Shown here piece after piece: positions 5,160-9,118 of a DNA stretch of 64,000 nucleotides (positions are counted from its first letter, which is position 1; each line of letters opens with the position of its first letter). The notes under the pieces were generated by a model, which was given only the letters and a program-made list of their open reading frames with translations, made no database searches and was not told the DNA's origin. The stretch lies in the NCBI RefSeq assembly GCF_044647545.1, contig NZ_CP172818.1; one strand, 5' to 3'. Source of the stretch: Escherichia coli (GTDB lineage Bacteria > Pseudomonadota > Gammaproteobacteria > Enterobacterales > Enterobacteriaceae). Made by a program: the position numbers and the translations under genes.

Positions 5160-5663
5160 ATGACTGAAATGGCTAAAGGAAGCGTGACGCATCAGCGGTT
5201 AATCGCTTTATTATCGCAAGAAGGTGCTAACTTCCGCGTCGTTACCCATGAAGCGGTAGGTAAATGTGAAGCGGTGTCAGAAATTCGTGGCACCGCTTTA
5301 GGCCAGGGGGCTAAGGCACTGGTATGTAAAGTCAAAGGCAATGGCGTAAATCAACATGTTCTGGCGATCCTCGCGGCCGATCAACAGGCCGATCTGAGCC
5401 AACTTGCCAGCCATATAGGCGGATTACGCGCTTCGTTGGCCAGCCCGGCGGAAGTCGATGAACTCACAGGCTGTGTCTTCGGCGCGATCCCCCCTTTCAG
5501 CTTCCATCCAAAACTCAAACTGGTTGCCGACCCCCTACTCTTCGAACGATTTGATGAAATCGCCTTCAATGCAGGCATGCTGGATAAATCCGTTATTTTG
5601 AAAACCGCGGATTATTTGCGCATTGCGCAACCAGAACTGGTCAATTTCCGCCGCACTGCGTAA
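5160..5663 (+). CDS. yeaK: YbaK/ProX-family aminoacyl-tRNA deacylase YeaK
   Basis: 167-aa ORF with GGAG upstream; conserved position after dgcJ. Confidence 0.85.
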   Translation: MTEMAKGSVTHQRLIALLSQEGANFRVVTHEAVGKCEAVSEIRGTALGQGAKALVCKVKGNGVNQHVLAILAADQQADLSQLASHIGGLRASLASPAEVDELTGCVFGAIPPFSFHPKLKLVADPLLFERFDEIAFNAGMLDKSVILKTADYLRIAQPELVNFRRTA

Positions 5664-5768
5664 CTAGCCTGTCCGTTCGATAAGAAGAACGGACAAAACC
5701 AGCACAACAGCAATGGCAAAAAACGATGACGTGATAATCAGTGTCTCGACGAACATTTGATCGTTCAT
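5664..5768 (-). CDS. yoaI: Small membrane protein YoaI (34 aa)
   Basis: Minus-strand ORF read by hand: [34 protein letters not shown]; below the ORF-track size cut-off. Confidence 0.6.
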
Positions 5769-5937
5769 AGTATGCCCCCGGGAGATAGCTGTTTTCACGT
5801 TATTGTTAACGTGCACAAATGGCAGTTTGATGACAGTTCGCCTGATTTTTTATGCAAAAAACGTAAAGATTTTCTACTTCCTTCCTGCAGCAAGCGTAAA
5901 GTAAGCAGGCTTATTATTCTTTGGCAAGGAAACCACG

Positions 5938-6384
5938 ATGTTTGATGTCACTTTGCTGATCCTGCTCGGGTTAGCTGCGCTGGGCTTTATCAGTCATAAC
6001 ACCACTGTCGCCGTTTCAATTCTGGTGTTAATCATTGTCCGCGTCACACCGTTAAGCACCTTTTTCCCGTGGATTGAAAAACAGGGGCTAAGTATCGGGA
6101 TAATCATTCTGACGATTGGTGTTATGGCTCCCATCGCCAGCGGGACGCTACCGCCCTCAACCCTGATTCACTCGTTTCTGAACTGGAAATCGCTGGTGGC
6201 AATTGCAGTCGGCGTTATTGTCTCCTGGCTGGGAGGGCGCGGCGTGACGTTAATGGGCAGCCAGCCGCAACTGGTCGCCGGGTTGCTGGTGGGCACTGTT
6301 TTAGGCGTGGCGCTGTTTCGCGGCGTACCGGTTGGCCCGCTTATTGCCGCGGGTCTGGTTTCGCTGATTGTGGGGAAACAGTAG
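5938..6384 (+). CDS. yeaL: UPF0756 inner-membrane protein YeaL
   Basis: 148-aa hydrophobic ORF; 3' end overlaps the convergent nimR. Confidence 0.85.
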
Positions 6385-7162
6385 TTAATCCCGCAATATA
6401 TCGGCCTGGCGTTTGCCCCAGGCCTTTCTTAAACATAGTAATAAAGGCCGTTGTTGAATCATACCCCAGCGTATGAGCAACTTTCTGTACAGTATCGCCT
6501 TTCACTAATCCCTGAAGCGCCATAATCAGCTGTAACTGCTGACGCCACTGGCGAAAACTCAACCCCGTCTCTTTCACTATCAGCCGGGCAAGATTGCGTT
6601 CACTCATCGCAAAAAAGCGAGCCCATTGCCCCAATGACCCCCACTCGACGGGCTCTTTCGCCATCATCTCCACCATCGCGCGGATTTTAGGATGAGAAGA
6701 AACGGGTAGGTGCAGCTGTTGTTGTGGCTGCTGAGGGAGTTCATCAAACAGGACCTGAATTAATCTGCGGGTCATCGGCTCAGCACGCTGAGTCGTCGTC
6801 CTGTTTGCCAGGGTTAAAATTAATTCCCGGCATAAGGGCGATATTTTCAATGTGCAACAGGTTGTCGGCATTGTCACTGCGCTGGGTTCGATAAACAGAA
6901 AACAGAGTTCGGCGTTAGCTGTCACTTGATTGCTATGTTCCACCCCTCCCGGTATCCAAACCGCATATTGCGGCGGCACCATCCACAAAGCATTTTCCAC
7001 CGTACAGGTAATTGCACCATGTAGCGCCAGTATCAGCTGTCCTTTGCGGTGCTGATGTACAGGACTGGTTAACTCATCCGTTCCGGCGTGAATACAAAAT
7101 GCGACCGCGGCTTCATGGTGTCGGTCGGGTTCATAGCCATTGAGATTCAACCTGTGCATCAT
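6341..7162 (-). CDS. nimR: AraC-family transcriptional regulator NimR (YeaM)
   Basis: 273-aa ORF with cupin-like N-terminus and AraC-type HTH C-terminus; divergent from the MFS gene nimT. Confidence 0.85.
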
Positions 7163-7258
7163 TTTGTCCGAATTTAGCGATAATTTGTCATTTTAGCTTG
7201 ATTCAACATAACACTAAAAACGGTAAGGTACAGCCTCGTTTGTAACAATGAGAAGCAT

Positions 7259-8440
7259 ATGACCTGTTCAACTTCATTAAGCGGCAAAAACAGGATTGTC
7301 CTTATCGCTGGTATTCTGATGATTGCCACAACATTACGCGTCACCTTTACCGGCGCAGCACCGTTACTGGATACGATTCGTTCCGCTTACTCGCTGACGA
7401 CGGCGCAAACCGGCTTATTGACCACCCTGCCATTATTAGCCTTTGCGCTAATCTCACCGCTGGCCGCCCCGGTGGCGCGACGTTTTGGTATGGAACGTAG
7501 CCTGTTTGCCGCGTTACTTTTGATCTGTGCAGGTATCGCAATTCGCTCTCTCCCTTCGCCTTACTTATTATTTGGCGGTACAGCGGTCATTGGCGGTGGG
7601 ATTGCATTAGGCAATGTCTTACTGCCAGGATTAATTAAACGCGATTTCCCTCATTCCGTCGCCAGACTTACCGGCGCATATTCCCTGACAATGGGAGCTG
7701 CGGCGGCACTGGGATCGGCTATGGTAGTGCCGCTGGCTTTGAACGGTTTTGGCTGGCGAGGCGCGTTGCTCATGCTGATGTGTTTTCCTCTGCTGGCTCT
7801 TTTTTTATGGCTGCCACAGTGGCGAAGCCAACAACATGCAAATTTGAGTACTTCACGCGCCTTACATACTCGGGGTATCTGGCGTTCGCCGCTTGCCTGG
7901 CAGGTAACATTGTTTCTTGGGATCAACTCACTGGTCTATTACGTGATTATTGGCTGGCTTCCGGCGATCCTCATCAGTCACGGCTATAGCGAAGCACAGG
8001 CGGGTTCACTGCATGGTTTGCTGCAACTAGCCACAGCAGCTCCCGGTTTGCTGATCCCACTTTTCTTACACCATGTGAAAGATCAGCGTGGTATTGCAGC
8101 GTTCGTTGCCTTGATGTGCGCAGTGGGCGCGGTTGGGCTCTGCTTTATGCCAGCGCACGCGATCACCTGGACTCTGCTTTTCGGCTTTGGTTCCGGCGCA
8201 ACAATGATACTGGGGTTGACGTTCATTGGTCTGCGGGCAAGTTCTGCGCATCAGGCGGCGGCACTCTCGGGGATGGCACAATCCGTCGGGTATTTGCTGG
8301 CAGCCTGTGGGCCGCCGCTGATGGGTAAAATACACGATGCTAACGGTGACTGGTCCGTACCACTGATGGGTGTTGCAATACTTTCACTACTGATGGCGAT
8401 TTTCGGACTTTGCGCCGGGAGAGACAAAGAAATTCGCTAA
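7259..8440 (+). CDS. nimT: MFS transporter NimT (YeaN)
   Basis: 393-aa, roughly 12-TM hydrophobic ORF; divergent from nimR. Confidence 0.85.
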   Translation: MTCSTSLSGKNRIVLIAGILMIATTLRVTFTGAAPLLDTIRSAYSLTTAQTGLLTTLPLLAFALISPLAAPVARRFGMERSLFAALLLICAGIAIRSLPSPYLLFGGTAVIGGGIALGNVLLPGLIKRDFPHSVARLTGAYSLTMGAAAALGSAMVVPLALNGFGWRGALLMLMCFPLLALFLWLPQWRSQQHANLSTSRALHTRGIWRSPLAWQVTLFLGINSLVYYVIIGWLPAILISHGYSEAQAGSLHGLLQLATAAPGLLIPLFLHHVKDQRGIAAFVALMCAVGAVGLCFMPAHAITWTLLFGFGSGATMILGLTFIGLRASSAHQAAALSGMAQSVGYLLAACGPPLMGKIHDANGDWSVPLMGVAILSLLMAIFGLCAGRDKEIR

Positions 8441-8494: not shown

Positions 8495-8842
8495 ATGAAT
8501 ATTCAGTGCAAACGCGTTTATGATCCGGCTGAACAGAGCGATGGTTATCGCGTACTGGTCGACCGCCTCTGGCCGCGCGGTATCAAAAAAACCGATTTAG
8601 CCCTTGATGAGTGGGATAAAGAAATCACGCCGTCAACGGAACTGCGCAAAGCCTTTCACGGCGAAGTCGTCGATTTTGCAACCTTTCGCGAGCAATATCT
8701 TGCAGAACTGGCGCAACACGAGCAAGAAGGAAAGCGGCTGGCGAACATCGCCAAAAAACAGCCGCTGACCCTGCTCTACTCAGCAAAAAACACCACGCAG
8801 AACCATGCGCTGGTGCTGGCAGACTGGCTACGTAGCTTGTGA
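8495..8842 (+). CDS. yeaO: DUF488 protein YeaO
   Basis: ATG at 8495 after GGGAGA SD gives 115 aa; ORF track start 8474 is an upstream extension. Confidence 0.8.
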   Translation: MNIQCKRVYDPAEQSDGYRVLVDRLWPRGIKKTDLALDEWDKEITPSTELRKAFHGEVVDFATFREQYLAELAQHEQEGKRLANIAKKQPLTLLYSAKNTTQNHALVLADWLRSL

Positions 8843-8863: not shown

Positions 8864-9118
8864 TTATTTTTCACCAGCCGGATGGTCCCGTCGCCACAAT
8901 GCCCATTCATCAATCGTTTCACCGCCCGGTAATTTGCAATTGTTGCTGACCCCTTGCGCTGTCTGCACTGGAATGAGCGTCCCGCCCTTCTGCTGGCAAT
9001 AGACCGACGCCGGATTTGCCATACCAATCTGTGGCGGTTTAGGTGCTTCTGGCTGAGAAGGGGTTGAACAACCAGCCAGGACCAGCAAGCAAGGCAGAAC
9101 AAAACTGATAATTTTCAT
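8864..9118 (-). CDS. yoaF: DUF333 lipoprotein YoaF
   Basis: 84-aa ORF with lipoprotein signal (LVLAGCSTP lipobox). Confidence 0.8.
   Translation of the reverse strand: MKIISFVLPCLLVLAGCSTPSQPEAPKPPQIGMANPASVYCQQKGGTLIPVQTAQGVSNNCKLPGGETIDEWALWRRDHPAGEK

Follow-up and report, generated by a model that had tools for sequence, protein, structure and literature searches.

The convergent genes yeaL and nimR of Escherichia coli share 44 bp of coding sequence, and the most plausible view is that this overlap arose neutrally, through drift of a stop codon. We put the probability of that reading, an ordinary tail-to-tail overlap of two real genes that arose by drift of the nimR stop codon and not by selection for overlap, at about 0.75. 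The overlap is real, ordinary and already annotated and catalogued, and its biological importance is low: it is textbook stop-codon drift in a tightly packed convergent pair. What we add here is the switching of a nimR stop by YeaL residues 144-145, a NimR tail that is unconstrained and mostly disordered, and a probable yeaL terminator inside nimR. All coordinates (Table 1) refer to the window, i.e., the whole 64,000-nt stretch of E. coli DNA that was analysed.

Table 1. Features of the yeaL-nimR junction, in window coordinates
Feature	Position	Strand	Description and basis
yeaL CDS	5938..6384	+	148 aa, DUF441/UPF0756 inner-membrane protein; stop TAG at 6382-6384 (ORF list)
nimR (yeaM) CDS	6341..7162	-	273 aa, AraC-family regulator of the divergent nimT; stop TAA at 6343-6341 (ORF list)
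yeaL/nimR coding overlap	6341..6384	both	44 bp (direct sequence reading)
nimR stop codon TAA	6341..6343	-	made by yeaL codons L135-I136 (CTT ATT) (direct reading)
nimR codon 265 (CAA, Gln)	6368..6370	-	a stop in most relatives, which gives a 17-bp overlap
NimR HTH_18 coding region (residues 180-255)	6398..6625	-	Pfam; domain end 14 nt outside the overlap
Candidate yeaL intrinsic terminator	6403..6430	+	hairpin GGCCTGG-N8-CCAGGCC (6403-6424), then TTTCTT (6425-6430) (terminator scan)
RNA past the nimR stop (antisense to yeaL)	6185..6340	-	C-rich, G-poor; no hairpin plus U-tract

Both partners are genuine genes in the frames given in Table 1, on opposite strands with shared 3' ends, and thus form a convergent overlapping pair. 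Residues 7-145 of the 148 in YeaL match DUF441 (Pfam, E 2.7e-44), while NimR matches HTH_18 (residues 180-255, E 3.4e-19), HTH_AraC, AraC_binding and Cupin_2, and so combines the C-terminal double helix-turn-helix and the N-terminal cupin-like sensor domain of the AraC/XylS family. In published work, NimR is a transcription factor of 273 aa that has a single target and binds the nimR/nimT spacer (PMC5934670; PMC4797297). These domain matches and the RefSeq records bear out the sequence-only reading, which had called the pair a membrane protein and an AraC-type regulator; the ORF list and RefSeq likewise confirm the positions it gave for the yeaL stop (6384), the nimR stop (6341) and the 44 bp common to both coding sequences. 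The segment is E. coli chromosomal DNA, with 100% identity over 1.6 kb to several complete genomes, and RefSeq/PGAP annotates identical yeaL and nimR ends in a 100%-identical genome, in K-12 W3110, in O157:H7 and in strain D1. The locus was detected in 5,406-5,411 of 5,426 complete E. coli genomes, and NimR orthologues were recovered in 80 species-level genomes (one genome per species).

The overlap runs from the second base of yeaL codon 135 to the yeaL stop, and on the other strand holds nimR codons 260-273 and the nimR stop; yeaL codon positions 1/2/3 pair with nimR positions 1/3/2. An annotation artefact, in which one gene truly ends earlier and no coding sequence is shared, is refuted by direct reading of the sequence, and its chance of being right is negligible. 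Strong domain matches fix both frames, and each stop is the first to occur in its frame; a 3' end depends on the stop codon and not on which start codon is chosen; and 44 bp is short for an overlap. On the other side stands the general point that large overlaps are frequently mispredicted (PMC2478687); nothing specific to this pair was found in favour. The sequence-only reading had itself named an earlier end of one gene as the observation that would overturn the overlap. There is no earlier in-frame stop in either frame, and hence neither gene ends earlier.

Overlaps of this type are well represented in E. coli: in the reference genome, 663 adjacent gene pairs overlap and 75 of these do so convergently; the convergent type has been ascribed to stop-codon movement (Huvet & Stumpf 2014, PMC4161906). 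Nor is the length of this one greater than expected by chance. When the YeaL protein was held fixed and its synonymous codons were resampled, the median run of the nimR frame into yeaL was 44 nt, with P(>=44) = 0.63. Neighbouring convergent pairs in the window are as tightly packed as yeaL-nimR: yeaK (5160..5663, +) and yoaI (5664..5768, -) abut with a 0-nt gap, and yeaO (8495..8842, +) and yoaF (8864..9118, -) are spaced 21 nt apart. All three pairs are listed in the E. coli excludon table (PMC12288877).

Overlap lengths in relatives were taken from the 80 species-level NimR loci, with each gene translated from its start to its first stop. The commonest length was 17 bp, present in 31 of the 80 loci (Klebsiella, Enterobacter, Raoultella, Lelliottia, Leclercia, Pluralibacter, the divergent 'E. 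coli' E69 and one Citrobacter youngae). The 44-bp state was found in 12 loci, all Citrobacter; the E. coli of the window, which lies outside the 80, is in the same state. Overlaps of 20, 21, 29, 6 or 4 bp accounted for 7 loci, exact abutment (0 bp) for 2 and gaps of 3-8 nt for 8, while yeaL lay farther from nimR in 4 loci and was absent within 3 kb of nimR in 16. Thus, the overlap ranges from -8 to +44 bp among relatives. For Enterobacter, Lelliottia and Leclercia, apparent overlaps of 119-281 bp were rejected as an artefact of tblastn alignments that crossed in-frame stops; the true value there is 17 bp.

In most genera, this variation comes from one side of the junction: the yeaL stop lies at a constant distance from the nimR start (nimR nt 779), and only the nimR stop shifts. 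In the junction alignment, the antisense nimR stop is spelled by adjacent YeaL codons of the form xTT-Axx, xTC-Axx or xCT-Axx, and the overlap length varies between relatives because YeaL residue pairs create or destroy such stops. At the position of the E. coli nimR stop, Citrobacter has CTC ATT or CTT ATT, which gives TGA or TAA; the CTG ATT of Enterobacter makes no stop there. Codon 265 of nimR is set in the same way by YeaL residues 144-145: Ile-Val (ATT GTG), as in the window, makes it Gln, while Phe144-Ile145 (TTT ATC) or Ile-Ile (ATC ATC or ATT ATT) makes it a stop. A conservative Val/Ile change in one protein can alter the length of its neighbour by 9 residues in either direction, and the junction is a worked example of this. 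Since the 44-bp and 17-bp states both occur within Citrobacter and within Escherichia, the switch has occurred repeatedly. In the 'E. coli' E69 sequence (CP089930.1, 3779-3795), YeaL V145I (ATC ATC) produces TGA at nimR codon 265 and an overlap of 17 bp; E69 is a divergent Escherichia genome whose NimR is 89% (tblastn) or 91% (alignment) identical.

We propose the following origin for the overlap. In much of the Enterobacteriaceae, no spacer separates the ends of yeaL and nimR, and the yeaL stop falls at nimR codons 260-261, just past the last helix of the NimR DNA-binding domain. The nimR frame then continues antisense to the last YeaL transmembrane helix until it meets an antisense stop that YeaL codons spell by chance. 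Val at YeaL 145 (ATT GTG) in E. coli abolishes the usual stop at nimR codon 265, and translation of nimR therefore runs for 9 further codons, to the TAA at 6343-6341 that YeaL L135-I136 provides. Given that its length is so variable, the coding overlap itself is arguably not the target of selection.

Selection on the shared sequence was compared in 13 genomes with the 44-bp state. Inside the overlap, yeaL codons had pS 0.379 and pN 0, close to the rest of yeaL (pS 0.442, pN 0.010; sliding 14-codon windows 0.17-0.68). For nimR codons 260-273 the values were pS 0 and pN 0.153, as against a nimR pN of 0.040 in the HTH domain and 0.065 in the N-terminal domain. Variable columns fell at nimR codon positions 1/2/3 in 2/9/0 of 14 cases; because of the 1/2/3 to 1/3/2 pairing, each synonymous yeaL change alters a NimR residue. 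Among these 13 genomes, the purifying selection on both frames expected of dual coding was not found, and the yeaL frame alone was constrained. Judged by these substitutions, the overlap evolves as yeaL coding sequence alone.

The NimR tail is also outside the fold of the protein. The alignment of NimR with a PDB homologue stops at residue 255, and invariant columns of the NimR alignment stop at Y255. The AF2 model of NimR (mean pLDDT 85.8) has its last helix at residues 252-261, and residues 263-273, with pLDDT below 50, are predicted to be disordered. The last 14 NimR residues are thus an unselected, mostly disordered tail that is read off the strand opposite yeaL and that evolves only as a shadow of yeaL. 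Natural variants include R272W in O157:H7 and, just outside the overlap, G258R in K-12. The locus is a worked example of how a correctly annotated coding overlap may still be non-functional on one strand.

It could be argued that the C-terminal extension is functional, e.g., in effector response, oligomerisation or stability, and that the overlap is kept for that reason. Essentially every E. coli sampled does have the 273-aa NimR, as do 12 species-level genomes of Citrobacter, and an unconstrained sequence is no proof that a tail has no function. We nevertheless regard this as very improbable, since the tail changes its residues at a higher rate than the NimR domains (pN 0.153 versus 0.040-0.065) and its variation, with none at nimR wobble positions and most at position 2, is the reverse of a coding signature. 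Relatives also have tails of anything from 0 to 17 residues, with differences inside the genera Citrobacter and Escherichia; the tail is predicted by AF2 to be disordered and, as seen in O157:H7 and K-12, tolerates or lies beside natural substitutions.

Individual genomes record further events within the 44 bp. At window position 6349, a single G-to-A change in O157:H7 alters both proteins (YeaL A138T and NimR R272W). In E. coli 23CRST051 (NZ_AP045826.1, 1734-2500), an IS1 lies in the overlap with a 9-bp target duplication that corresponds to window 6350-6358, and PGAP calls a YeaL of 166 aa and a NimR of 279 aa, both with IS1-derived C-termini.

Because no intergenic DNA separates the genes, their mRNAs must be complementary at the 3' ends, and the 3'-end signal of each gene must sit inside the other. 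For yeaL, the candidate is a hairpin that starts 19 nt past the yeaL stop and lies, with its U-tract, inside nimR codons K245-R254. The stem has 7 bp, of which 6 are GC pairs, and the loop has 8 nt; the U-tract is TTTTTT in Citrobacter and Salmonella. The element has the sequence features of an intrinsic terminator, i.e., a GC-rich stem-loop followed directly by a U-tract, downstream of a stop codon. Its fold energy is -14.1 kcal/mol, which is no more stable than that of shuffled sequence (z -1.38). The promoter/terminator scan found 2 sites versus 2.8 expected from shuffles; with no enrichment, the scan alone is no evidence for a terminator.

Conservation at synonymous sites is more informative. 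The stem is encoded by nimR codons G247, L248, P252 and G253. We took all 67 four-fold-degenerate columns with a conserved residue in 20 Escherichia/Citrobacter/Salmonella sequences. Only 3 of the 67 were invariant at the wobble base, all 3 of them in stem codons; the fourth stem codon was invariant in 19 of the 20 sequences, and the two loop codons used all four bases. The hypergeometric chance of this placement is ~8e-5, a value calculated post hoc from the wobble counts. In this clade only, then, the stem is conserved beyond what the protein code requires: other genera encode the same residues with varied codons, and their hairpin is imperfect or absent. The codon beside the stem, K246, is AAA (UUU in the opposite sense) in 19 of 20 clade members versus roughly half elsewhere. 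Among E. coli genomes with a match, 5,234 of 5,309 carry an exact copy of the 56-nt hairpin segment, but only 2,074 of 5,408 an exact copy of the 66-nt overlap segment. RNAalifold found no compensatory changes or covariation in the hairpin among the clade sequences, and the case for the hairpin therefore rests on the invariance of synonymous sites.

From this pattern, we infer that the hairpin is probably the intrinsic terminator of yeaL and that it is kept by synonymous-site selection within the helix-turn-helix motif of nimR. Transcription of yeaL would then most likely end in nimR codons 245-254, with an antisense RNA overlap of at least ~90 nt. Should the hairpin be confirmed as a terminator, recoding, deleting or synonymously varying nimR would also change termination of yeaL, and the locus would be a worked example of how a terminator-like hairpin can be kept by synonymous-site selection in the most conserved motif of another gene.

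The hairpin might instead have been kept for another reason: (i) as an element of the nimR mRNA, (ii) as a palindromic protein-binding site or (iii) through Dcm methylation and very-short-patch (VSP) repair at two CCWGG sites. A palindrome forms equally well on both strands, the stem contains CCTGG and CCAGG, its stability is unremarkable and it has invariance only, with no covariation, all of which would fit such a role. A U-tract, however, follows the stem directly only on the yeaL-sense strand; codon K246 of nimR is AAA in 19 of 20 sequences, and the yeaL stop lies 19 nt before the hairpin. In addition, termination of nimR transcripts at the hairpin would truncate the mRNA ahead of its stop codon. 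The third possibility is largely rejected as the cause of the frozen stem bases: other CCWGG sites in nimR are not conserved, being kept in only 1-6 of the 20 sequences, which makes Dcm/VSP unlikely. Of the four frozen wobble bases, moreover, no more than one would be protected by VSP repair. Taken together, a role other than termination of yeaL seems to us rather unlikely.

The hairpin does not have the arrangement of a bidirectional terminator, with a 5' A-tract and a 3' U-tract and a position beyond both stops. It lies within the nimR CDS at codons 247-254, the sequence on its 5' side is CGCAATATATC (E. coli) or CAGATAAC (Citrobacter), and, with a U-tract on one side only, it cannot terminate both genes bidirectionally. 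Past the nimR stop, the RNA has a C/G ratio of 1.4-1.9 over its first 156 nt, a bias that would fit Rho-dependent termination; the terminator scan returned no minus-strand terminator-like site there, and the RNA has no structure beyond that of shuffles (fold z -0.12). Because no hairpin plus U-tract follows the nimR stop, nimR transcripts presumably acquire their 3' ends within yeaL, either through Rho or by read-through. Positions 5600-7400, scanned against Rfam, returned only a JUMPstart match at 6144-6173 (-), antisense within yeaL, which at 21.5 bits is below the gathering score of 35 (E 0.096) and was judged to be due to chance.

The sequence-only reading had also raised transcriptional interference or antisense effects between the two genes, and these are possible. 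The ExcludonFinder catalogue (2025, PMC12288877) includes yeaL-nimR among the 165 convergent excludons that it found in >=50% of 58 MG1655 RNA-seq samples, with overlapping terminators predicted for 146 of the 165 pairs. Transcript overlap at this pair is close to automatic because the coding regions themselves overlap. Expression of yeaL is weak, with 36 and 67 normalised counts in one data set (PMC10294691). In that PhoB study, yoaI was strongly PhoB-dependent and yeaL weakly expressed (PMC10294691); the window also contains, at 5818-5835 (-), the PhoB box TGTCATCAAACTGCCATT that has been reported between yoaI and yeaL. yeaL is also a RIL-seq interactor of the 3'UTR-derived sRNA UhpU, which represses it (PMC12704781), a matter unrelated to the overlap.

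A stronger claim would be that the overlap is a selected regulatory module, i.e., an excludon in which polymerase collisions or RNase III cleavage of the duplex make expression of yeaL and of nimR (and, via NimR, of nimT) mutually exclusive. Besides its place among the 165 convergent excludons, the pair keeps its end-to-end arrangement in most Enterobacteriaceae genera sampled, excludon pairs in general are more syntenic than other pairs, the conserved hairpin inside nimR makes yeaL mRNA antisense to nimR, and head-on collisions at stem-loops are a documented mode of termination for convergent pairs (bioRxiv 10.1101/2022.10.23.513370). Conserved tight adjacency and this general synteny leave room for a selected regulatory link. 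The overlap, however, varies in length from -8 to +44 bp, with small gaps in several genera; the catalogue comes without a functional test for each pair, and validation by dsRNA capture (p19) was not feasible for convergent excludons (PMC12288877). Expression of yeaL is low, a natural isolate has the overlap split by IS1, and there is no known functional link between yeaL and nimR. We therefore consider selection for such a module unlikely and keep neutral stop-codon drift as the preferred reading. As yeaL expression is low, we infer that any regulatory effect of the overlap is probably small. Rarely firing promoters make polymerase collisions infrequent.

The most far-reaching version joins the hairpin to this regulatory idea. 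A yeaL terminator built from the most conserved NimR helix-turn-helix codons in Escherichia, Citrobacter and Salmonella, and held there by synonymous-site selection, would make every yeaL transcript an obligate ~90-nt antisense RNA to the nimR 3' end, so that transcription of yeaL would measurably lower NimR and tune the nimT efflux gene. If true, the locus would be an excludon in the functional sense, connecting nitroimidazole resistance with a DUF441 membrane protein. We hold this chain of steps to be improbable.

Compared with known systems, the pair most closely fits the convergent overlapping pairs surveyed previously (PMC4161906): two real genes on opposite strands with common 3' ends that result from loss or shift of a stop codon. 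There is no essential difference from these; the specific YeaL residue pairs and the unconstrained nimR side are added here. NimR in turn resembles other AraC/XylS regulators with short, non-conserved C-terminal tails, in that its fold closes at the GxxP..Y motif of the second helix-turn-helix and the tail past this motif varies in length and sequence; it differs in that the residues of its tail are determined by the strand opposite a neighbouring gene for a membrane protein.

With excludons (PMC12288877), yeaL-nimR shares a convergent arrangement, overlapping transcripts and a listing by name in the E. coli 'excludome', together with a probable terminator of yeaL inside the nimR transcription unit. 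Functional excludons are defined by mutually exclusive expression and RNase III processing, whereas yeaL-nimR is so far known by transcript overlap, and its overlap extends beyond UTRs to include coding sequence. Finally, a GC-rich stem-loop and a U-tract at the boundary of the pair are features that the hairpin shares with the intrinsic terminators and collision stem-loops described for convergent genes (Wang, Watters, Ju & Liu 2022, bioRxiv 10.1101/2022.10.23.513370). Unlike those stem-loops, the hairpin is embedded in nimR coding sequence, and 60 nt separate it from the nimR stop.
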